From the IMG/VR virus record IMGVR_UViG_2778261454_000013: DNA of 10,026 nucleotides. One strand, written 5' to 3'. The notes under the pieces are model-generated. The model made no database searches. It was not told the DNA's origin and worked only from the letters and a program-made list of their open reading frames with translations. This DNA comes from a virus (Duplodnaviria; Heunggongvirae; Uroviricota; Caudoviricetes). Numbering within the stretch: position 1 is the first letter of the stretch; each line of letters opens with the position of its first letter. Position numbers and translations under genes: made by a program. Below, piece by piece: positions 1 to 10,026 of the stretch.

Positions 1-411
1 ATGGCTCAGGTTGCCATTTTTAAACAAATATTCGATAAAGTGCGAAATAATTTAAACTATCACTGGTTTTATTCTGAACTAAAACGTCACAATGTCTCAC
101 ATTACATTTACTATTTAGCTACAGAGAATATTCATCTTGTTCTTGAAAACGATAATACGGTTTTAATAAAAGGACAGGGTAAGGTTGTAAATGTAAGATT
201 TTCAAAAAATAAATGCCTTATAGAAGCCACCTTAAAAGGATTCAAATCAGGAGAGTTATCATTTTACGAATACAGGAAAAATCTTGCTACAGCAGGGGTT
301 TTCAGATGGATTACAAATATCCACGAAAACAAAAGGTATTACTATACCTTTGATAATTCATTACTCTTTACTGAGAACATTCAGAACACTACACAAATAT
401 TTCCGCACTAA
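1..411 (+). CDS. ybcV: DUF1398-family prophage protein (YbcV-like), 136 aa
   Basis: ORF starts with ATG at window position 1. Translation ([14 protein letters not shown]...[12 protein letters not shown]...[13 protein letters not shown]) matches my recollection of DLP12 YbcV in sequence and length. Antiparallel to the lysis cassette, as in DLP12. Confidence 0.6.
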
Positions 412-760
412 ATCATAACGTCCGGTTTCTTCCGTGCCAGAACCGGACTCGCTGGCATGATGAAATATGTGTACCCGGTAACCCCGGTGTGCATCGTTTT
501 TGATTATTCCCGCACACTCGCGCAGAAGGAGTTCCCCGTCGGGCTACGGTCTCTGTTAATACGGGAATACGGCGACGATACAGCGCATGATGTGTCAGGC
601 TTGAATGCCTTTATCCGTTAAAAGGGATATCAGTTAAGTTATCCCGTGCAGGGTATAAGCCATTATCAAGCCCACCCGTAGATGGGCTTTGTAATGGATA
701 GCCGTTGCTCAGTTCTAGTAATGCTTTGATTTTTTCGATAACGCAGTTTTGCGTTTGCCA

Positions 761-1282
761 TCAGCACGCGATATCGAGAGTCAACTGCAGTTGCTCGCGC
801 CAGTACTCAACATTTGCTTCAATAACCGGCTTATCCCATCGCCAGCGAGCCATCTCTCTTGCCCCATTGCTGGCTTTTGATTTCCGGTCATCGCGAATGC
901 GACATGCTTGCTCATATTTCTGCTGCTCAGTCAGTTCACCGCGAAGCAGACTATCAATGTGCAGGTCGCACCACACAGCAAAACGAGCATCACACCAACG
1001 GGCAAATGCAACTGAAAGTTTTGGATGTAGCCACGTACCACCACCCCTGTCCTTTCGTGCCTTGCTGGTTTTTACATACCTCGATTGTGAGGGATGTAAA
1101 ATTTGAGATTCTTTCCCGGTCAACGCTTCGTCTAAAGCACGAACGTATTCAAGCGTTTCTGCCAAACGCATCCAGTTATCAATGCGTTTCCCAAATCTCT
1201 CAGCAACACCTGTGACGTTGATCCAACCATCAGTGTTGAAACTGACAATTTCACCTTTGTAATTAAGTGGCACGATATTCAT
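761..1282 (-). CDS. KilA-N domain protein, 173 aa (possible antirepressor-like or truncated)
   Basis: Translation contains a KilA-N-like core (GGTWLHPKLSVAFARWCDARFAVWCD). AGGT Shine-Dalgarno-like motif about 8 nt upstream of the ATG. Overlapping plus-strand ORFs 705..1106 and 859..1215 are Cys/Ser-rich and judged spurious. Confidence 0.55.
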   Translation of the reverse strand: MNIVPLNYKGEIVSFNTDGWINVTGVAERFGKRIDNWMRLAETLEYVRALDEALTGKESQILHPSQSRYVKTSKARKDRGGGTWLHPKLSVAFARWCDARFAVWCDLHIDSLLRGELTEQQKYEQACRIRDDRKSKASNGAREMARWRWDKPVIEANVEYWREQLQLTLDIAC

Positions 1283-1397
1283 AACGTTTACCTACCATTT
1301 GAAATGAACCTTTGCCGCACAGGAAACCAGCCCACCGAGGCTCGCCAGCACTAACTGGTATCCTCAAAGGCCCATTCCAAAGGGGCAGGTTCGGTGT

Positions 1398-1424
1398 AAA
1401 AAAAACATGCGTTGCGGTACGCAT
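1398..1424 (-). terminator. Putative intrinsic terminator downstream of Rz (second of two in tandem)
   Basis: Minus-strand hairpin ATGCGT-ACCGCA-ACGCAT (plus 1407..1424) followed by a run of 8 T on the minus strand (plus A-tract 1398..1405). Confidence 0.4.
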
Positions 1425-1430
1425 TTATTG

Positions 1431-1454
1431 CAAAAAAGCCCCGCATCGCGAGGC
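1431..1454 (-). terminator. Putative intrinsic terminator immediately downstream of Rz
   Basis: Minus-strand hairpin GCCTCGC-GAT-GCGGGGC (7-bp stem with one G.U, plus 1438..1454) followed by TTTTTT on the minus strand (plus A-tract 1432..1437). Confidence 0.5.
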
Positions 1455-1486
1455 TCATTAAATGGACTTTGTGATTTGCAAAAAAA

Positions 1487-1924
1487 TTATTTCAGACATT
1501 GCGTCCTGATGTACTCCTGCAGGTAGTTAACCTGCGCGGTTATCCTGTCGATTCCACTTCGGAGACGGTAATAATTGAGTTCAGCATCTGCTGTAAGTCT
1601 TGGGCTTTCTCCATCGCCCATGCTGCTGGCTCCGGTCTTTGACTTTGCACAGGAGGCGGCGACTTGCAGCCGCTTACGCCCAGCAGAAACATCATCACGG
1701 AGACTTTCGATAGTCGCGTTAGCATCAGCAAGCTCCTTTGTATATCTGGCATCGAGTTCTGCTACGTCACGTTGACGCTTCTGCATGTCAGCGATGATGG
1801 ATGTGGCTTTGTCGCGCTGTTCTTTGTAGGTCATGGCGTTATCACGGTAATGATTAACAGCCCATGACAGGCAGACGATGATGCAGATAACCAGAGCGGA
1901 GATAATCGCGGTTACTCTGTTCAT
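1487..1924 (-). CDS. rzpD: Rz-type i-spanin (inner-membrane spanin), 145 aa
   Basis: N-terminal TM segment ([21 protein letters not shown]) followed by a charged coiled-coil-like periplasmic domain. ATG at 1924 overlaps the endolysin stop as ATGA. The ORF track's longer form starts at 1936 (MGSAMNRV). Confidence 0.75.
1540..1725 (-). CDS. rzoD: Rz1-type o-spanin lipoprotein, embedded in the +1 frame of Rz, 61 aa
   Basis: Embedded ORF entirely inside Rz. Signal peptide with lipobox ([20 protein letters not shown]), then proline-rich mature region ([13 protein letters not shown]). Start chosen at the Met giving a canonical lipoprotein signal; the exact start is uncertain. Confidence 0.6.
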
Positions 1925-2418
1925 TGCTGACCCCACAAACAGATTTCACGCTCAATCTCACGACGAGTCATGAGACCTTTCCATTGCTTACCGCCAGCAT
2001 ATGTCCAGCGACGTAGCTGATCACATGCGCCTTTGATATCGCCCTGGTTTATTTTGCGAAGAAGCGTCGATGTTCTGAAATTGCCAGCACCCACGTTGTA
2101 AACGAATGAGTAAAGAGCGCCGCGCATTGTTTCCGGTATATCGACTTTGATGTACGGGTTAATTTGTCTGGCGACCGTGGCAAGGTCTTTATTCAGGAGG
2201 GCTTTGCATTCTGCTTTGGTATACGTTTTACCGAGCATGATGTCTTTTCCTGTATGCCCGTGACATACAGTCCATACACCAACAATATCTTTGTATGGTA
2301 TGTAGCTGACACCTTCCAGACCATCGTTACCACTTGGGCCAGTAATTAACACTGATGCTATAGCAATTGCTCCGCCACCAATAGCAGCAGCAACGGCTTT
2401 TCGTAATGATGGAGGCAT
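1921..2418 (-). CDS. rrrD: SAR endolysin (phage lysozyme, R21/RrrD-like), 165 aa
   Basis: N-terminal signal-anchor-release-like hydrophobic segment ([20 protein letters not shown]) followed by a lysozyme domain ([23 protein letters not shown]). Start ATG overlaps the holin stop (TAATG on the minus strand). Confidence 0.85.
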
Positions 2419-2633
2419 TATTCACCTCTCGCAGCCTTGCGCTTATCTTCTTTAATCTTGAAATAAAGGTTTGTCAGGTACGTCAGCAGGCCAAATACCA
2501 GGCTACCCAGCACACCTATTGCTGCCCACTGTGAGGGCGTGACTTTATCGAGCAGCTGTAAAAACCAGTAACCGGCACTACCTGCTGAGGTGCCATAGGC
2601 GACACCCGTTGTTAACTTATCCATGGATTTCAT
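2418..2633 (-). CDS. essD: Class II holin / pinholin (S21/EssD-like), 71 aa
   Basis: Start at MKSMDKL with GAGGTG Shine-Dalgarno upstream. Two in-frame Met codons (Met1, Met4) typical of holin/antiholin dual starts; two TM segments. The ORF-track start at 2678 is an upstream extension without ribosome-binding support. Confidence 0.8.
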
Positions 2634-3125
2634 AACCCCACCTCGCAGACAAAGCGGGTGTAAATTGAGGGAATACAACGTATCGCAAAAAAGCAGAAAC
2701 GTAACAGACTCGGAGTCAGTGAATAACTCAGGTATTGAGTTATCAGCTAATATCGAGACTCAAAAAATGGAAAAACCAGCTCGACGGCGGGTTTAAGCTG
2801 TGTGACGAAGTAACCACTCTTAACAGCATAACCAATTTTTTACGTACGTAAACCACTGAATGATATTTATGAGAATGCTACCGAGTGTTCAAAACACCAC
2901 CACAAATACATAAGAAAACCTCAACAAATAACCAATAAATAATTTCAGAGGTTATTTTTAGTTGATTTAAATTAAACTGCCGAATTATAGAACCCCCATA
3001 AATAACAGCCATTAATATAAATTAGCTAATAGGTTTATTTTTGTTCAAATAAGAGCCATAAATAGGTTTCGATAGAAAAAGTTCAGATAAAAATAGAGAT
3101 CTACTTCACAAATTAAATGAGAAAC

Positions 3126-3150
3126 TAAAACTTACATCTTGAAATAATCA
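3126..3150 (+). promoter_or_regulatory. OmpR-box-like motif in the porin upstream region
   Basis: Sequence AAACTTACATCTTGAAATAATCAC resembles the ompC OmpR-binding half-sites (TTTACATTTTGAAACATCTA) as I recall them. Lies about 80 bp upstream of the porin ATG inside an AT-rich ~540 bp ORF-free region. Confidence 0.3.
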
Positions 3151-3221
3151 CATTGATTAGATGAATATTTATCGCGCAGTGACATCATTTTTTAATAATA
3201 GTTCAAAAAAAAGGGCTCACG

Positions 3222-4304
3222 ATGAAAAAATTAACAGTGGCAATTTCTGCTGTAGCTGCATCAGTACTGATGGCGATGTCTGCTCAGGCAGCTGAAATTT
3301 ATAATAAAGACAGTAACAAGCTGGATCTGTACGGGAAAGTTAATGCTAAGCACTACTTCTCCTCTAATGATGCAGATGATGGTGATACTACTTATGCCCG
3401 TCTTGGCTTCAAAGGTGAAACCCAAATCAACGATCAACTGACTGGTTTCGGTCAGTGGGAATATGAATTCAAAGGCAACCGCGCTGAATCTCAAGGTTCC
3501 TCCAAAGACAAAACCCGTCTTGCATTTGCAGGCCTGAAATTCGGTGACTACGGCTCAATCGATTACGGCCGTAACTACGGTGTAGCATACGACATCGGTG
3601 CGTGGACTGACGTTCTGCCAGAATTCGGTGGCGATACCTGGACCCAAACAGATGTATTCATGACTGGTCGCACCACAGGTGTTGCAACTTATCGTAACAA
3701 CGACTTCTTTGGTCTGGTTGATGGCCTGAACTTTGCAGCTCAGTATCAGGGCAAAAATGACCGAAATGAAGTAACTGAAGCTAATGGCGATGGTTTCGGT
3801 TTCTCAACTACTTATGAGTATGAAGGATTCGGCGTGGGTGCAACCTATGCTAAATCTGATCGCACTAATAATCAGGTTATCTACGGTAACAACGGTCTGA
3901 ATGCTTCTGGTCAAAATGCTGAAGTATGGGCAGCTGGTCTGAAATATGATGCGAACAACATCTATCTGGCCACCACCTATTCTGAAACCCAGAACATGAC
4001 TGTTTTTGGTAATAACCATATTGCCAACAAAGCACAAAACTTCGAAGCTGTTGCACAATATCAGTTCGACTTCGGCCTGCGTCCATCCGTTGCTTACCTG
4101 CATTCTAAAGGAAAAGACTTGGGTGTTTGGGGTGATCAGGACCTGGTTGAATATGTTGATGTAGGTGCAACCTATTACTTCAACAAAAATATGTCCACTT
4201 TTGTTGACTACAAAATCAACCTGATTGATAAGAGCGATTTCACGAAAGCATCTGGCGTTGCTACCGATGATATCGTTGCTGTAGGTATGGTTTACCAGTT
4301 CTAA
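3222..4304 (+). CDS. nmpC: Phage-encoded general porin of the OmpC/OmpF family (NmpC/Lc-type), intact, 360 aa
   Basis: Signal peptide [23 protein letters not shown], mature N-terminus [22 protein letters not shown] loop-3 motif, C-terminal aromatic ...VGMVYQF. Full length with no interruption. Sits between Q and the holin on the opposite strand, as nmpC does in DLP12. Confidence 0.9.
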
Positions 4305-4470
4305 TTTGATTACTAAAAGATATGTTGCGGGAGGCTTTGCCTCCCCAACATATAAGTGGCTCCCTCAAGCCACTTCCTTTAGGAGCACAACCTTGCTTCT
4401 AACTATATAAACCTTCTGTTATATATTACCCTTTATTTTTGGGGGCGTCTCAACGCCCCATTTTTAATAA
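4305..4470 (+). ncRNA. ipeX: Structured porin 3' UTR, IpeX-like candidate regulatory RNA
   Basis: About 166 nt between the porin stop and a terminator. Three perfect hairpins: GGGAGGC-TTT-GCCTCCC (4329..4345), AAGTGGCT-CCCTCA-AGCCACTT (4354..4375), GGGGCGT-CTCA-ACGCCCC (4442..4459). IpeX is described as lying in the nmpC/lc 3' UTR before its terminator. Confidence 0.4.
4442..4470 (+). terminator. Rho-independent terminator ending the porin transcript
   Basis: 7-bp GC-rich stem, 4-nt loop, followed by TTTTTAATAATTTTT. About 25 bp before the convergent Q stop codon. Confidence 0.55.
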
Positions 4471-4492
4471 TTTTTAGTAAACAATTGGCATA

Positions 4493-4876
4493 TTAATTAG
4501 AGTTATTAACAACGATATCCATCTCTAACCGGATATCTAATGCCATTAACATCCCTTCAATTATACCCTCAGCCTTCTGTAACCTTTTCCCGATATAACC
4601 ATCAGAGCAGCAATGCTTACCTGCCAGTGACATGAATGTCATACCGACTACATAATAATCTACTAATAAATCGTGCAAATCGCTGTTGTTCTTTTTCAGA
4701 CGGGCCATGCACCCGCAAATGATCATCGCGTCATCGTCACAACATTGCGGGCGAGATTTTACTTTTGAAGGAATTAATCCCTTAAAACCGGCGGCAATGG
4801 ACGACCAGGTCACATCTTCATGATTATTAGCCGCCCACGCTCCCCAACGCTCAAGAACCATCTGAATATCACGCAT
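4493..4876 (-). CDS. quuD: Late-gene antitermination protein Q (QuuD-like), 127 aa
   Basis: Cys-rich zinc-binding motif ([19 protein letters not shown] ... GKHCCSDGY). ATG at 4876 preceded by GGAG. The ORF-track start at 4891 is a TTG five codons upstream. Transcribed in the same direction as the lysis cassette. Confidence 0.75.
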
Positions 4877-5120
4877 CAACTTACTCCACAAAAATCAGAC
4901 CAGAACGCCAATTACAAGCAAAAATCAATAAAACAGTATTAGTTGATTGTTATCTCTGACTTCATACTCCTGCTCCTGTCAGGGTTTTGGCGTAATTCCT
5001 CAGTATTCGGTAATCGGTCAAAACAGAACCGGGGAAACGATATAAGCGCAGGCGCATCCAGCGGTGGCGAAGACGTTCTGCCATATAAGACTCAAACATC
5101 ATTCATCTCCCAGTTCAGTG

Positions 5121-5303
5121 ATGGTCAGTTCCAGCTTCCCACCTTTGGTAGGCACGATCACTTTCGTCTACTCCGTTACGAAGCGAGGCTGGGTATTTCC
5201 CGGCCTTTCTGTTATCCGAAATCCCCTGAAAGCACAGCGGCTGGCTGAGGAGATAAATAATAAACGGGGAGCTGTATGCACAAAGCATCTCCCGTTGAGT
5301 TAA
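5121..5303 (+). CDS. Small pL-operon ORF (lambda orf60a-like by position and length), 60 aa
   Basis: ATG at 5121 gives MVSSSFPPLVG...; ends at 5303, overlapping the next ORF by 28 nt. This matches my memory of the lambda orf60a/orf63 overlap. Identity not verifiable here. Confidence 0.4.
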   Translation: MVSSSFPPLVGTITFVYSVTKRGWVFPGLSVIRNPLKAQRLAEEINNKRGAVCTKHLPLS

Positions 5304-5467
5304 GAACGAGTATCGAGATGGCACATAGCCTCGCTCAAATTGGAGTCAGGTTTGTGCCAATACCAGTAGAAACAGACGAAGAATTTCATACGTTAGCCGC
5401 ATCCCTTTCACAAAAGCTGGAAATGATGGTGGCGAAAGCAGAAGCAGATGAGAGAGACCAGGTATGA
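5276..5467 (+). CDS. Small pL-operon ORF (lambda orf63-like), 63 aa
   Basis: GGGGAG Shine-Dalgarno 4 nt upstream of the ATG. Balanced composition (MHKASPVELRTSIEMAHSLAQIG...). Stop overlaps a downstream ATG as ATGA. Confidence 0.5.
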   Translation: MHKASPVELRTSIEMAHSLAQIGVRFVPIPVETDEEFHTLAASLSQKLEMMVAKAEADERDQV

Positions 5468-5759
5468 CAACCACGGAATGCATTTTTCTGGCAGCGGGCT
5501 TCATATTCTGTGTGCTTATGCTTGCCGACATGGGACTTGTTCAATGACACCTCAGCAGGAAAACGCCCTTCGCAGCATTGCCCGTCAGGCTAATTCTGAA
5601 ATCAAAAAAGCCAGACAGCAGTTTCCGGATAAAAACGTCGATGACATTTGCCGTAGCGTACTGAAGAAGCACCGCGAAACGGTAACGCTGATGGGATTCA
5701 CACCGACTCATTTAAGCCTGGCAATCGGCATGTTAAACGGCGTCTTTAAGGAACGATGA
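5448..5759 (+). CDS. Hypothetical small protein (lambda orf61 position); start uncertain
   Basis: ORF overlaps the preceding gene by 20 nt if it starts at 5448 (103 aa). An internal ATG at 5544 (MTPQQENALRSIARQ..., 71 aa) overlaps, as ATGA, the stop of an intervening 27-codon ORF. Confidence 0.4.
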   Translation: MRETRYDNHGMHFSGSGLHILCAYACRHGTCSMTPQQENALRSIARQANSEIKKARQQFPDKNVDDICRSVLKKHRETVTLMGFTPTHLSLAIGMLNGVFKER

Positions 5760-5780
5760 ACATGAAAAGCAAAATCATCA

Positions 5781-5802
5781 GGGAGCTACAGGCTCCTTTT
5801 TT
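5781..5802 (+). terminator. Possible intrinsic terminator or attenuator between small ORFs
   Basis: Hairpin GGAGC-TACAG-GCTCC followed by TTTTTT. Alternatively this stretch lies inside a 31-codon ORF (5756..5851). Confidence 0.3.
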
Positions 5803-5857
5803 ATTATTCGCATTCACCCTCAAGCGTATTAACCAACAATTCAGGGATTAATGGAAG

Positions 5858-6079
5858 ATGGCAGACATCATTGATTCAGCATCAGAAATTGAAGAATTAC
5901 AGCGCAACACAGCAATAAAAATGCGCCGCCTGAACCACCAGGCTATATCTGCCACTCATTGTTGTGAGTGTGGCGATCCGATAGATGAACGAAGACGCCT
6001 GGTCGTTCAGGGTTGTCGGACTTGTGCAAGTTGCCAGGAGGATCTGGAGCTTATCAGTAAACAGAGAGGTTCGAAGTGA
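5858..6079 (+). CDS. TraR/DksA-family C4 zinc-finger protein (lambda Orf73-like), 73 aa
   Basis: Motif CCECGDPIDERRRLVVQGCRTCASC fits the DksA/TraR CxxC-(N17)-CxxC zinc finger with conserved G, I and R positions. The 73-aa length matches TraR-like phage proteins. Confidence 0.7.
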   Translation: MADIIDSASEIEELQRNTAIKMRRLNHQAISATHCCECGDPIDERRRLVVQGCRTCASCQEDLELISKQRGSK

Positions 6080-6176
6080 GCGAAATTAACTAGAAGCCAA
6101 AGATAAAATCATCGCTGAGCAGGAGAAAATCGCTAACGGAGAAAAGACAGTAAGTCAGTATATGAAAACCGCATGA
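6076..6176 (+). pseudogene. Probable ea22-like remnant, interrupted after codon 5
   Basis: GTG at 6076 overlaps the upstream stop (GTGA) and encodes (M)SEIN, then an in-frame TAG. From memory lambda Ea22 begins MSEINSQ. A shifted frame continues EAKDKIIAEQEKIANGEKTVSQYMKTA to 6176. Confidence 0.3.
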
Positions 6177-6231
6177 TATCATCAGATAAAAATCGGTCGT
6201 AAAGCGAAATATTAATACCAGAACAAACGAG

Positions 6232-6255
6232 TCGAGGTAAATTATATTACCTCGA
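6232..6255 (-). terminator. Strong hairpin downstream of the membrane-protein gene (putative terminator)
   Basis: Perfect 9-bp stem TCGAGGTAA-ATTATA-TTACCTCGA (6232..6255), about 35 bp past the minus-strand stop. The downstream minus-strand sequence is only moderately U-rich (ctcgtttgttctgg). Confidence 0.4.
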
Positions 6256-6289
6256 TAAATTAACTAAAACTTGCCCGCTATATACTATA

Positions 6290-6892
6290 TCATTCAGTAT
6301 CATCACGCGCGGTCTGTGCATATGTCACTACCGCACCTAATATATTAATTTTCTTTTCAACATAGATAATATTATCGTACTCATAATTGCCATACGGATA
6401 GCAAATGCGAATATTCTCATGTAGTTCGGGGTCATCCACCTCAGCTCCAGAACAACTTTTTGAACTACCGGAAGTATACCGATACGGTGCAACATAAGAC
6501 GATGTCTCTCCAGGCAAAAAATAAGTTAGTGTCGTAAGGGGTATAATCAGAAAAAATCCAGCAAATATGCACATCCCTGCATAAACCTTAAGGTATGCTG
6601 ACAGACTCTTCCAGCCTCTTTGTTTTACTATCCCCTTCTTAACCCAAAACAGAGATAACAGAAAAGCTATTCCCATGCTAAACAGAATGTAATAGTGGGA
6701 TATACTCTGATTAAGAAACGTGACCCTGTAGATATCTGCCCGCCACCAGAAGAAAAGGAAAATAAAGATCAGCCCTGAAACTGTCATGCAAATCAAATAA
6801 GGATACGAATCTTTTTTCATGTTTAGCGCCCATAAAATTTTTCCTGACCCGGACAAATTTACCATCCATTTTTTGCGCAGAAAATAGCTCAT
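6290..6892 (-). CDS. Unrecognised integral membrane protein (3 predicted TM helices plus ~75-aa C-terminal domain), up to 200 aa
   Basis: Long minus-strand ORF in a markedly AT-rich segment. Hydrophobic stretches LICMTVSGLIFIFLFFWW, YYILFSMGIAFLLSLFWV and VYAGMCIFAGFFLIIPLTTLTYFL, then a polar tail with Cys and Tyr residues. No clear Shine-Dalgarno at any candidate start (6892, 6865, 6820). TATTAT hexamer at 6906..6911 on the transcribed strand. Confidence 0.55.
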   Translation of the reverse strand: MSYFLRKKWMVNLSGSGKILWALNMKKDSYPYLICMTVSGLIFIFLFFWWRADIYRVTFLNQSISHYYILFSMGIAFLLSLFWVKKGIVKQRGWKSLSAYLKVYAGMCIFAGFFLIIPLTTLTYFLPGETSSYVAPYRYTSGSSKSCSGAEVDDPELHENIRICYPYGNYEYDNIIYVEKKINILGAVVTYAQTARDDTE

Positions 6893-7065
6893 TACTTACT
6901 GCACAATAATACACAAAATTGCGTAAATTTTTTGCATGGATTTTAGCTCTTTCAGCCGAAATTTAAGGGGTAAATAGCATTTCCTAAAAGCAACTGCACC
7001 AACCCAACAGAATGGGCTACCGCTTACGTTGAGAGCAAAAAAGTGTATAGCAGCAATGAACAGCA

Positions 7066-7094
7066 TCCTCGCACTGACGAGGATTTCTTTTATC
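7066..7094 (+). terminator. Hairpin with T-tract near the right edge of the cargo segment
   Basis: TCCTCG-CACTGA-CGAGGA followed by TTTCTTTTAT. Confidence 0.3.
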
Positions 7095-7134
7095 TGAACT
7101 CGCTACGGCGGGTTTTGTTTTATGGAGATGATAA

Positions 7135-7302
7135 ATGCACTTCCGAGTCACAGGTGAATGGAATGGAGAACCATTCAACAGAGTTATCGAAGCCGAGAAC
7201 ATCAGCGACTGCTATGACCACTGGATGCTGTGGGCGCAGATAGCACATGCAGACGTAACCAATATTCGAATTGAAGAACTGAAAGAACACCAAGCCGCCT
7301 GA
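7135..7302 (+). CDS. Small pL-operon ORF upstream of xis (lambda orf55-like), 55 aa
   Basis: GGAGA Shine-Dalgarno 6 nt upstream of the ATG; translation MHFRVTGEWNGEPFNRVIEAENISDCYDHWMLWAQIAHADVTNIRIEELKEHQAA. The 40-bp gap to xis matches the lambda layout as I recall it. Confidence 0.5.
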   Translation: MHFRVTGEWNGEPFNRVIEAENISDCYDHWMLWAQIAHADVTNIRIEELKEHQAA

Positions 7303-7317
7303 TGGCGGTTTTTTCTT
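7294..7317 (+). terminator. Intrinsic terminator-like hairpin between orf55 and xis
   Basis: GCCGCC-TGAT-GGCGG followed by TTTTTTCTT. The orf55 stop codon lies in the loop. Confidence 0.45.
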
Positions 7318-7360
7318 GCGTGTAATTGCGGAGACTTTGCGATGTACTTGACACTTCAGG
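7316..7360 (+). promoter_or_regulatory. pI-like, CII-activated int promoter region
   Basis: TTGC-N6-TTGC direct repeat (7316..7319 and 7326..7329) just upstream of and overlapping the xis start, as in lambda pI. Confidence 0.5.
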
Positions 7361-7560
7361 AGTGGAACGCACGCCAGCGACGCCCAAGAAGCCTTGAAAC
7401 AGTTCGTCGATGGGTACGCGAGTGCAGGATATTCCCTCCTCCGGTTAAGGATGGAAGAGAGTATCTGTTCCACGAATCAGCGGTAAAGGTTGACTTAAAT
7501 CGACCAGTAACAGGTAGCCTTTTGAAGAGGATCAGAAATGGGAAGAAGGCGAAGTCATGA
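7342..7560 (+). CDS. xis: Excisionase Xis, 72 aa
   Basis: Translation MYLTLQEWNARQRRPRSLETVRRWVRECRIFPPPVKDGREYLFHES... appears identical to lambda Xis. Overlaps int by 23 nt. Confidence 0.95.
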   Translation: MYLTLQEWNARQRRPRSLETVRRWVRECRIFPPPVKDGREYLFHESAVKVDLNRPVTGSLLKRIRNGKKAKS

Positions 7561-8608
7561 GCGCCGGGATTTACCCCCTAACCTTTATATAAGAAACAAT
7601 GGATATTACTGCTACAGGGACCCAAGGACGGGTAAAGAGTTTGGATTAGGCAGAGACAGGCGAATCGCAATCACTGAAGCCATACAGGCCAACATTGAGT
7701 TATTTTCAGGACACAAACACAAGCCTCTGACAGCGAGAATCAACAGTGATAATTCCGTTACGTTACATTCATGGCTTGATCGCTACGAAAAAATCCTGGC
7801 CAGCAGAGGAATCAAGCAGAAGACACTCATAAATTACATGAGCAAAATTAAAGCAATAAGGAGGGGTCTGCCTGATGCTCCACTTGAAGACATCACCACA
7901 AAAGAAATTGCGGCAATGCTCAATGGATACATAGACGAGGGCAAGGCGGCGTCAGCCAAGTTAATCAGATCAACACTGAGCGATGCATTCCGAGAGGCAA
8001 TAGCTGAAGGCCATATAACAACAAACCCTGTCGCTGCCACTCGCGCAGCAAAATCAGAGGTAAGGAGATCAAGACTTACGGCTGACGAATACCTGAAAAT
8101 TTATCAAGCAGCAGAATCATCACCATGTTGGCTCAGACTTGCAATGGAACTGGCTGTTGTTACCGGGCAACGAGTTGGTGATTTATGCGAAATGAAGTGG
8201 TCTGATATCGTAGATGGATATCTTTATGTCGAGCAAAGCAAAACAGGCGTAAAAATTGCCATCCCAACAGCATTGCATGTTGATGCTCTCGGAATATCAA
8301 TGAAGGAAACACTTGATAAATGCAAAGAGATTCTTGGCGGAGAAACCATAATTGCATCTACTCGTCGCGAACCGCTTTCATCCGGCACAGTATCAAGGTA
8401 TTTTATGCGCGCACGAAAAGCATCAGGTCTTTCCTTCGAAGGGGATCCGCCTACCTTTCACGAGTTGCGCAGTTTGTCTGCAAGACTCTATGAGAAGCAG
8501 ATAAGCGATAAGTTTGCTCAACATCTTCTCGGGCATAAGTCGGACACCATGGCATCACAGTATCGTGATGACAGAGGCAGGGAGTGGGACAAAATTGAAA
8601 TCAAATAA
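7538..8608 (+). CDS. int: Tyrosine integrase Int (lambda Int), 356 aa
   Basis: Translation MGRRRSHERRDLPPNLYIRNNGYYCYRDPRTGKEFGLGRDRRIAITEA... with C-terminal catalytic region ...HELRSLSARLYEKQ...LLGHKSDTMASQYRDD. Full length. Confidence 0.97.
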   Translation: MGRRRSHERRDLPPNLYIRNNGYYCYRDPRTGKEFGLGRDRRIAITEAIQANIELFSGHKHKPLTARINSDNSVTLHSWLDRYEKILASRGIKQKTLINYMSKIKAIRRGLPDAPLEDITTKEIAAMLNGYIDEGKAASAKLIRSTLSDAFREAIAEGHITTNPVAATRAAKSEVRRSRLTADEYLKIYQAAESSPCWLRLAMELAVVTGQRVGDLCEMKWSDIVDGYLYVEQSKTGVKIAIPTALHVDALGISMKETLDKCKEILGGETIIASTRREPLSSGTVSRYFMRARKASGLSFEGDPPTFHELRSLSARLYEKQISDKFAQHLLGHKSDTMASQYRDDRGREWDKIEIK

Positions 8609-8712
8609 TGATTTTATTTTGACTGATAGTGACCTGTTCGTTGCAACAAATTGATAAGCAATGCTTTTTTATAATGCCAACTTAGTATAAAAAAGCAGGC
8701 TTCAACGGATTC
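8609..8712. other. attL: attL recombination site: phage P' arm, 15-bp core, bacterial B arm
   Basis: Core TTAGTATAAAAAAGC at 8682..8696 is the reverse complement of the lambda core GCTTTTTTATACTAA. P' arm carries arm-type Int sites (AGGTCACTAT on the opposite strand) and an IHF-like TTGATAAGCA element. Beyond the core is GCAGGCTTCAACGGATTCAT. Confidence 0.85.
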
Positions 8713-8742: not shown

Positions 8743-10026
8743 GTGAACACATTTTCAGTTTCCCGTCTGGCGCTGGCATTGGCTTTTGGCGTGACGCTGA
8801 CCGCCTGTAGCTCAACCCCGCCCGATCAACGTCCTTCTGATCAAACCGCGCCTGGTACCTCTTCTCGCCCGATTCTGTCGGCAAAAGAAGCGCAGAATTT
8901 CGATGCTCAACACTATTTTGCATCCCTGACACCAGGTGCTGCAGCGTGGAATCCTTCCCCGATTACCCTGCCTGCGCAACCTGAATTTGTTGTCGGCCCG
9001 GCGGGCACTCAAGGTGTAACGCATACCACGATTCAGGCGGCGGTAGATGCGGCAATTATCAAGCGTACCAACAAGCGCCAGTATATTGCCGTGATGCCTG
9101 GTGAGTATCAGGGAACGGTATATGTCCCTGCCGCTCCGGGTGGAATTACTCTGTACGGTACAGGTGAAAAACCGATTGATGTGAAGATTGGGCTTTCCCT
9201 TGATGGTGGCATGAGCCCTGCCGACTGGCGTCACGACGTCAACCCGCGCGGCAAATATATGCCAGGTAAACCAGCGTGGTATATGTACGATAGCTGCCAG
9301 AGCAAACGCAGCGACAGTATCGGTGTTCTCTGCTCTGCGGTCTTCTGGTCACAAAACAATGGCCTGCAACTGCAAAATCTGACCATCGAAAACACGCTGG
9401 GCGATAGCGTAGATGCAGGTAACCATCCGGCGGTGGCACTGCGTACTGATGGTGACCAGGTACAGATTAACAACGTTAACATTCTCGGTCGTCAGAACAC
9501 CTTCTTTGTCACCAACAGCGGTGTGCAGAACCGTCTGGAAACGAATCGTCAGCCGCGTACGCTGGTGACCAACAGCTACATTGAAGGGGATGTGGATATC
9601 GTTTCTGGTCGCGGCGCAGTGGTGTTCGATAACACCGAATTCCGCGTGGTGAACTCACGTACTCAGCAAGAAGCGTATGTGTTTGCACCGGCTACGCTGT
9701 CCAACATTTACTACGGTTTCCTCGCCGTAAACAGCCGTTTCAATGCTTTCGGTGATGGTGTGGCGCAACTGGGCCGCTCGCTGGATGTTGATGCCAATAC
9801 CAACGGTCAGGTGGTGATCCGTGATAGCGCCATCAACGAAGGTTTTAACACGGCTAAACCGTGGGCCGATGCGGTGATCTCTAATCGTCCGTTTGCGGGT
9901 AATACCGGCAGCGTAGATGATAACGACGAAATACAGCGCAATCTGAATGACACTAACTACAACCGCATGTGGGAATACAATAACCGCGGCGTGGGTAGTA
10001 AAGTGGTTGCAGAGGCGAAGAAGTAA
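8743..10026 (+). CDS. ybhC: Host outer-membrane lipoprotein YbhC (pectinesterase-fold acyl-CoA thioesterase family), 427 aa, complete
   Basis: GTG start with GGAG upstream. Lipoprotein signal MNTFSVSRLALALAFGVTLTAC. Full-length ORF ending at the window edge with TAA. ybhC is the chromosomal gene flanking the lambda attachment site. Confidence 0.95.
   Translation: MNTFSVSRLALALAFGVTLTACSSTPPDQRPSDQTAPGTSSRPILSAKEAQNFDAQHYFASLTPGAAAWNPSPITLPAQPEFVVGPAGTQGVTHTTIQAAVDAAIIKRTNKRQYIAVMPGEYQGTVYVPAAPGGITLYGTGEKPIDVKIGLSLDGGMSPADWRHDVNPRGKYMPGKPAWYMYDSCQSKRSDSIGVLCSAVFWSQNNGLQLQNLTIENTLGDSVDAGNHPAVALRTDGDQVQINNVNILGRQNTFFVTNSGVQNRLETNRQPRTLVTNSYIEGDVDIVSGRGAVVFDNTEFRVVNSRTQQEAYVFAPATLSNIYYGFLAVNSRFNAFGDGVAQLGRSLDVDANTNGQVVIRDSAINEGFNTAKPWADAVISNRPFAGNTGSVDDNDEIQRNLNDTNYNRMWEYNNRGVGSKVVAEAKK

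Follow-up and report, generated by a model that had tools for sequence, protein, structure and literature searches.

The window analyzed here, i.e. the whole stretch of 10,026 nucleotides from the IMG/VR virus record IMGVR_UViG_2778261454_000013, raises the question of how an antiterminator gene Q and a gene of the pL operon of a lambdoid prophage came to lie head-to-head at a distance of about 245 bp. The initial annotation placed Q on the minus strand and an orf60a-like gene on the plus strand, and saw in the DNA between them, 4877..5120, the mark of an internal deletion. Q is indeed found at 4493..4876 on the minus strand and an ORF of 60 codons starts at 5121 on the plus strand; the nature of what lies between them turned out to be different.

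The sequence identifies the window as the int-proximal end of a prophage of the lambda family that is integrated at att-lambda and adjoins the host gene ybhC. The att core, the lambda-type int and xis genes, and ybhC are all present, and the phage homology stops at position 8696 in the matches with both lambda and phage ev099 (NC_049953, Radostvirus, 47,224 bp). The visible DNA covers 10 kb of the element, the remainder and attR lying outside the window. Between the pL-operon genes and Q, we found neither the immunity (cI/cro), nor the N, nor the replication (O/P, ori) modules. The features of the window are as follows.

3222..4304, plus strand: porin gene of the OmpD/NmpC type, intact, 360 aa (ORF listing and Pfam)
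4493..4876, minus strand: Q antiterminator of the QuuD/phage-21 type, intact, 127 aa (Pfam PF06530, E 8.5e-54; corresponds to ev099 gp62 at 41856..42239)
4877..4961: native spacer between Q and ylcG, 85 bp (colinear with ev099 41771..41855)
4962..5102, minus strand: ylcG, intact nin-region gene of 46 codons (maps exactly onto ev099 YlcG, 41630..41770)
5099..5150, minus strand: 3' remnant of rusA, the final 52 nt of a 363-nt gene (aligns to ev099 41633..41582)
5121..5303, plus strand: chimeric ORF of 60 codons, orf60a/DUF1317 (Pfam DUF1317 over residues 10-59 only)
5147..5150: deletion junction, GGTA common to both parents, with the crossover TA at 5149..5150 (three-way alignment and BLAST segments)
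5185..5207, plus strand: terminator-like hairpin within DUF1317 (terminator scan and DNA fold of the equivalent ev099 region)
5276..5467, plus strand: orf63/DUF1382 gene, intact (Pfam PF07131, E 3e-31; 98.3% identity to lambda)
5858..6079, plus strand: TraR/DksA-type zinc-finger gene of the exo-xis region (Pfam PF01258, E 1.6e-8; equivalent to ev099 gp37)
6290..6892, minus strand: ORF of a predicted membrane protein of 200 aa (no Pfam match)
7342..7560, plus strand: xis, 72 aa (ORF listing; xis-int DNA 98.8% identical to lambda)
7538..8608, plus strand: int of the lambda type, intact, 356 aa (window 7065..8696 is 98.8% identical to lambda 29355..27724)
8682..8696, minus strand: att core GCTTTTTTATACTAA, attL (exact match, 0.01 expected by chance)
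8743..10026, plus strand: host ybhC (annotated as ybhC in all best-matching E. coli chromosomes)

The genes on the far side of Q belong to a late module of the DLP12/phage-21 type, with a PF06530 Q, a porin moron, a holin, an RrrD-type lysozyme, and Rz, accompanied by a KilA-N gene and a DUF1398 gene (ORFs and Pfam). The names quuD, essD, rrrD, and rzpD are found among its RefSeq matches, and the ORFs at 3222..4304, 2418..2678, 1921..2418, and 1487..1936 are colinear with ev099 gp62-68. The porin gene sits between Q and the holin, antiparallel to the late operon, and is a typical moron kept in many decayed att-lambda prophages. The counterparts of 4962..5102 in related E. coli loci are annotated as YlcG family proteins, and the product of this gene has no Pfam match. 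The hairpin at 5185..5207 occupies what we take to be the position of lambda tL3. At the other end of the element, a perfect 12-nt inverted repeat (TGCTTTTTTATA and TATAAAAAAGCA, 8662..8697) spans the att core and the boundary between phage and host.

The annotation map of ev099 shows these very modules, arranged and oriented as in the window. A BLAST comparison of the two gives three segments: window 1..5150 corresponds to ev099 46731..41582 (99.7% identity), window 5147..6091 to ev099 31053..30109 (98.4%), and window 7054..8696 to ev099 28591..26949 (98.7%). There is no matching segment beyond these. Hence, the window shares gene order and modules with ev099 at 98.4-99.7% identity but lacks the 10,528 bp that ev099 has at 31054..41581. 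Since nothing in the window matches this stretch, the element is a deletion derivative rather than a complete member of the lambda family, and the initial annotation was correct in stating that the recombination, N, immunity, replication, and nin modules are missing between Q and the exo-xis region. The two also differ in that ev099 carries ea22/LprI genes at the place of the membrane-protein segment of the window (6092..7053), which is absent from both ev099 and lambda. The gene within this segment (6290..6892) is also present in strain LR-71-1 (WP_208595490, hypothetical).

Lambda itself matches window 5147..6091 and 7065..8696, at ~98-99%, and many phage records (Turner, mEp332, the PhiR series, and others) hold both halves of a query made of 4300..5800. 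The undeleted progenitor would have been essentially phage ev099, with lambda-type int/xis/exo-xis genes and Q/porin/lysis genes of the DLP12/21 type. This combination of a late module and an int module had been read as a mosaic. Since ev099 and many phage records carry it too, it is not peculiar to this element and was not created by the deletion, and a DLP12/21 late module together with a lambda int module is a normal architecture in the group.

A base-level three-way alignment follows the parent carrying rusA, ylcG, and Q through position 5150 and the parent carrying orf60a from position 5147, with an overlap of 4 bp (GGTA). The ev099 map, the BLAST segments, and this alignment all agree with an internal deletion that juxtaposed Q with the int-proximal remnant of the pL operon, as initially proposed. 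The breakpoint is not within 4877..5120, where it had been placed, but ~30 bp to the right of this interval, at 5147..5150, and this is also where microhomology, for which a check had been suggested, was found. A single colinear deletion of ~10.5 kb probably brought codon 10 of orf60a/DUF1317 directly up to the 3' end of rusA. According to the annotation of ev099, the lost stretch comprised the first 26 nt of DUF1317, exo, bet, gam, kil, two hypothetical genes, N, an NYN-domain gene, cI, cro, cII, O, P, ren, ninB, a methyltransferase gene, ninE, a DUF2591 gene, ninF, and 311 of the 363 nt of rusA. The promoters pL and pR, the operators, and ori are gone with it.

The interval 4877..5120 had been described as non-coding. 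It holds the intact ylcG gene and the first 22 nt of the rusA remnant, so that only 85 bp of it are intergenic. A crude consensus scan revealed no promoter-like sites in the junction region or in the spacer between Q and ylcG. The stop codon reported for the frame expected to carry the end of exo does exist (TAA at 5086..5088), but its connection with exo does not hold: the DNA is antisense ylcG, exo is wholly gone, and the stop is uninformative on this gene because the deletion ends downstream of it. The orf60a-like gene cannot be taken as native either, since codons 1-9 are antisense rusA and the match to DUF1317 starts at residue 10. Codons 10-60 of the ORF at 5121..5303 are native orf60a/DUF1317, and its ATG is in the part derived from rusA. 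This ATG lies 26 nt before the junction, at the same offset as the native ATG of orf60a. The chimeric ORF keeps the native length of 60 codons because the two offsets are equal, and this equality looks like a coincidence.

Apart from the shared GGTA, the two parents are unrelated at the junction. Together, these two ev099 segments account for every base of 4300..5800, which leaves nothing to be attributed to an IS-mediated deletion. The join is an illegitimate, non-homologous one with a 4-bp microhomology, involving neither an IS nor att. A deletion promoted by Int at a secondary site was considered and rejected, since the endpoints 5150/5151 lie 3.5 kb from the att core, which is itself undamaged (8682..8696).

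The junction is known from one assembly. With a query of 201 bp, none of 5,426 complete E. coli genomes gave a match reaching across the junction, and the junction patterns are absent from the GTDB species representatives and the JGI metagenomes. An exact junction that is found nowhere else is what one would expect if the assembly had joined two lambdoid prophages of the same genome, e.g. a DLP12-like and a lambda-like one, in place of a true deletion, and prophages sharing these modules are frequent (the window has a median of 5 matching places per E. coli genome). However, misjoins occur at long shared repeats and the parents share only 4 bp, the order and orientation of both sides are those of a single colinear genome, that of ev099, and analogous deletions are present in many complete genomes, three of them at the same nucleotide. 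Such a chimera is extremely improbable. Another explanation is recombination between separate prophages, or an exchange of modules resulting in a new functional mosaic phage. The DLP12/21-type Q/porin/lysis genes next to int/xis/exo-xis DNA that is 98-99% identical to lambda would fit with this, but intact phages (ev099, Turner, mEp332, the PhiR series, and others) already hold both halves, and we regard this explanation as very improbable. Its functional version is impossible, because the junction ruins rusA and orf60a and every immunity and replication gene is missing.

A true deletion in an ev099-like prophage also has parallels. Comparison with related att-lambda prophages, which had been suggested as a check of the deletion, shows that the same central region was lost by different events. 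Seven complete E. coli genomes have lost the immunity/replication region and kept the Q/porin/lysis and exo-xis/int genes, and each has a different endpoint on the Q side. Their junctions are as follows.

LR-71-1: IS5-associated junction
52F4: DUF1364' joined to 'exo
P377: ylcG' joined to 'bet
TA8571: Q side joined to 'DUF1382
KH_005 (L007): remnant of an IS3-family element abutting DUF1317, 20 bp downstream of the recurrent TA
ET776: NinG-like' joined to 'DUF1317
LR-64-1: ybcN' joined to 'DUF1317

These prophages differ from the one in the window by their own Q-side endpoints, and by the presence of IS5 in LR-71-1 and of the IS3 remnant in KH_005. In ET776 and LR-64-1, the breakpoint on the pL side is identical to that of the window to the nucleotide. 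Hence, these two genomes and the window have three different endpoints on the Q side and a single one on the pL side, ..TA/GGCGCGATCAC (the slash marks the breakpoint).

Given the absence of cI/cro, the operators, pL, pR, N, O, P, and ori, the element should be neither inducible nor replicable. This is what the initial annotation had concluded, and it is in line with the established biology of lambda. In lambda, cII activates the promoter pI of int. In the window, int and xis would be deprived of pL and cII, and Q would be deprived of pR; no known promoter would be left for int/xis or Q. The result would be a locked-in remnant in which intact ORFs for Q, the porin, the holin, the endolysin, the spanin, xis, and int remain. 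Those of Q, lysis, xis, and int are probably silent, and the porin gene would be transcribed independently. Taken alone, the window is a case of routine prophage decay, in which a lambda-type prophage became fixed in the chromosome, and this is an ordinary feature.

The comparison of junctions indicates that the TA of codon 10 (GTA) of orf60a, in CCGGGTA/GGCGCGATCAC, is a recurrent breakpoint that is precise to the nucleotide, is used in both directions, and is not random. At least 16 distinct junctions keep the int/exo-xis side and 2 keep the exo side, for at least 18 different rearrangements in all; most of the later alleles in these counts came from patterns requiring the TA, the unbiased ones being those of the first scan, of the E. 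coli genomes, and of the anchor scan. They originate from unrelated isolates and metagenomes, and their independence is deduced from the differing partner sequences. The first scan, an unselected one, searched IMG/VR with the 24-mer that adjoins the site on its right and retrieved at least 120 loci, almost all with the canonical sequence upstream. Foreign DNA was joined exactly at the TA in at least 6 of these loci, and another one carried an IS629 insertion 6 bp upstream. Patterns excluding the canonical base before the TA (IMG/VR and JGI metagenomes) yielded further alleles after removal of chance matches. Among the latter, L131, L141, L143, and L145-L148 were discarded, since a check of downstream identity showed them to be fortuitous hits in unrelated phages of high GC content. 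As a control, the T or the A of the pattern was substituted, and no genuine junction came up. When the anchor of the scan was placed 21 nt further right, all the non-canonical junctions within 56 nt upstream were at the TA, with the exception of one IS629 insertion, and one extra allele was found.

Some otherwise canonical loci (L018, L101, L142, L144, L149) carry a synonymous variant of the site, GGGTG/GGCGCG, where GTA is changed to GTG, and no junction was seen in them. A search of the literature on orf60a, the exo-xis region, and microhomology or breakpoints in lambdoid phages revealed no description of the TA site.

The 16 partners of the int-side junctions map within and upstream of rusA, to ren, to two sites of ybcN, to a NinG-like gene and other ORFs of the nin region, to a tail-fibre gene, and to baseplate genes of the Mu/P2 kind. 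The two TA-anchored deletions ending in ybcN (L006 and L132) have ends 34 nt apart (..GGTTTCATA/ and ..GCATCTTTTA/). For 14 partners, the intact parental sequence could be recovered from other loci, and all of them have a TA at the crossover, i.e. there is a TA on both sides, as expected for a TA-specific element of the IS630/Tc1 kind. The base at +2 is a C in 13/14 partners (background 0.29, p about 1e-6), a preference that was spotted after inspecting the data, and positions +1/+2 are CC in 8/14 (background 0.07, p about 2e-6). The flanks of the partners are not more similar to the canonical site than those of random TA sites (p about 0.2), which gives no support to annealing-driven slippage or extended imperfect homology.

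When the left flank was scanned for with any base but the canonical one after it, two junctions came up, those of the exo side, which read ..CCGGGTA/CC... In one, the partner is the middle of a DLP12-type int gene adjoining fimZ/sfm. In the other, the partner site precedes an IntD-type int by ~94 bp, and its locus also contains exo' and fragments of P/ren; this second junction is the exoD pseudogene junction of the DLP12 prophage of E. coli K-12 MG1655 (..CCGGGTA/CCTCACAAC..). The full exoD junction, of 89 nt, is present in 316 of the 5,426 complete E. coli genomes, e.g. in NZ_CP032667.1 at 3315471..3315559. Like the prophage in the window, DLP12 is a defective lambdoid prophage with quuD, an nmpC-type porin gene, essD, rrrD, rzpD, and rusA-ylcG, and its exoD junction is at the same TA of codon 10 of orf60a. 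It differs in being integrated at argU with IntD, whereas the prophage of the window is at att-lambda with lambda Int, and at the TA it retained the exo side but is missing the exo-xis side, which is the reverse of what happened in the window. The joints of the int-side class have the form flank-TA-flank. GGTACC is found at those of the exo side and would also be expected in the excised product of the int-side class. A TA stands at each end of the deleted segment, with a short inverted CC..GG just inside. Taking the locus and its relatives together, we consider it very likely that an ev099-like prophage underwent one deletion of ~10.5 kb, which turned it into a locked-in remnant and which has a recurrent, non-random endpoint at the TA.

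As for the origin of this recurrence, we tentatively suggest that codon 10 of orf60a might be an undescribed precise recombination site (..CCGGG-TA-GGCGCG..). Some enzyme would exchange strands at its TA with loose TA-CC partners, and this might be a major route by which lambdoid prophages of E. coli, including DLP12, lose their early or int-proximal regions and become fixed remnants. One possible, if speculative, candidate is a transposase-, HUH-, or recombinase-like enzyme that swaps strands at the 2-bp TA, using ..CCGGG/TA and TA/CC.. as pseudo-ends, producing flank-to-flank and end-to-end joints, the latter with GGTACC. The precision to the nucleotide, the invariance of the TA in all partners, the strand specificity of the TA/CC preference, and the observation of both products (flank-TA-flank and CCGGG-TA-CC) are in favor of such an enzyme, and the similarity of the flanks at the level of random TA sites speaks against annealing slippage. 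The arrangement resembles the reaction of a recombinase with a 2-bp crossover, or that of cut-and-paste transposons of the IS630/Tc1-mariner type, where a segment bounded by TA..TA has an inverted CC..GG inside and the flanks are rejoined via one TA, but here the inverted repeats are of at most 2-5 nt, there is no transposase, and the "element" would be the early region of the phage. We found no inverted copies of either flank in the window or in ev099, and no transposase ORF or Pfam match in the window. A classical IS or MITE at the site was rejected for want of terminal inverted repeats in both sequences. Other points against the enzyme are that neither side of the site has a terminal inverted repeat partner, that int is the only gene for a transposase or recombinase in the retained module, that we could not identify any known E. 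coli element combining a TA target with CC..GG ends, and that the partners are too poorly conserved for a classical site-specific recombinase. The reverse complement of the hot-spot sequence has what we take to be a likeness to the IS621 target ATCAGGCCTAC. A crossover of the integron type (G/TT), the CT core of the IS621 type, and recombination at secondary sites of Int were all discarded, because the position of the crossover or the partner sequences do not fit.

Two other mechanisms come into question, and we find both of them rather unlikely. The site could be a hot spot of IS insertion, with sloppy, transposase-dependent excision, known for IS629 and other elements of the IS3, IS30, and IS1 types with the IS-excision enhancer IEE, taking variable flanking DNA along, so that one end remains fixed at the former boundary of the IS. 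IEE is reported to promote the excision of IS629 either precisely or with extensive deletions, via microhomologies of 2-4 bp (bioRxiv 10.1101/2023.06.07.543989). This type of excision is the closest described one-ended mechanism: one end is fixed and the other variable, the microhomology is very short, and the IS is gone afterwards. There are insertions close by, with IS629 at 6 bp from the site in L114 and the IS3-family remnant at 20 bp in KH_005. Yet, both are at positions other than the TA, no IS was detected at the TA in any allele, and none was found exactly there in IMG/VR with patterns able to catch typical IS ends on either side. Moreover, the TA/CC preference and the use of the TA in two directions would be left unexplained. 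The IS629 of L114 (IMGVR_UViG_2778261..., oriented 9883..11192) is ~1.3 kb long, has a 3-bp duplication (ATC), and lies upstream of the TA. Elements of the IS3 family seem to favor the neighborhood of the TA of orf60a.

Alternatively, a local feature of the DNA could cause breakage or stalling at the TA, followed by rejoining with minimal homology. This feature might be an imperfect inverted repeat whose right arm starts from GGCGCGATCAC, a REP-like sequence attracting gyrase, or the hairpin 35 bp downstream. A modest DNA structure is predicted with the TA at the foot of the stem (z = -2.1), and the terminator-like hairpin at 5185..5207 is indeed there. The region 5135..5165 (ev099 31035..31065), with TATCCGG, GTAGGC..GAT, and GTAGGCGCGAT, presumably has some likeness to the REP consensus of E. 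coli. REP/BIME-associated recombination, by RAYT or by gyrase acting on REP, would call for a REP hairpin with a 5' GTAG; the DNA fold at the site shows no evident palindrome of the REP type. The predicted structure is weak. With stalling or breakage, endpoints should scatter over a few nucleotides and the partners should lack a strand-specific motif, in contrast with the single-nucleotide precision and the TA/CC preference of the data.

The usual view of deletions that inactivate prophages is that they arise illegitimately and at random and are then filtered by selection, whereas here one endpoint has been reused with single-nucleotide precision. If an enzyme is responsible, the domestication of prophages in E. 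coli would be partly directed, and the TA of orf60a would provide a simple genetic handle to find this enzyme.
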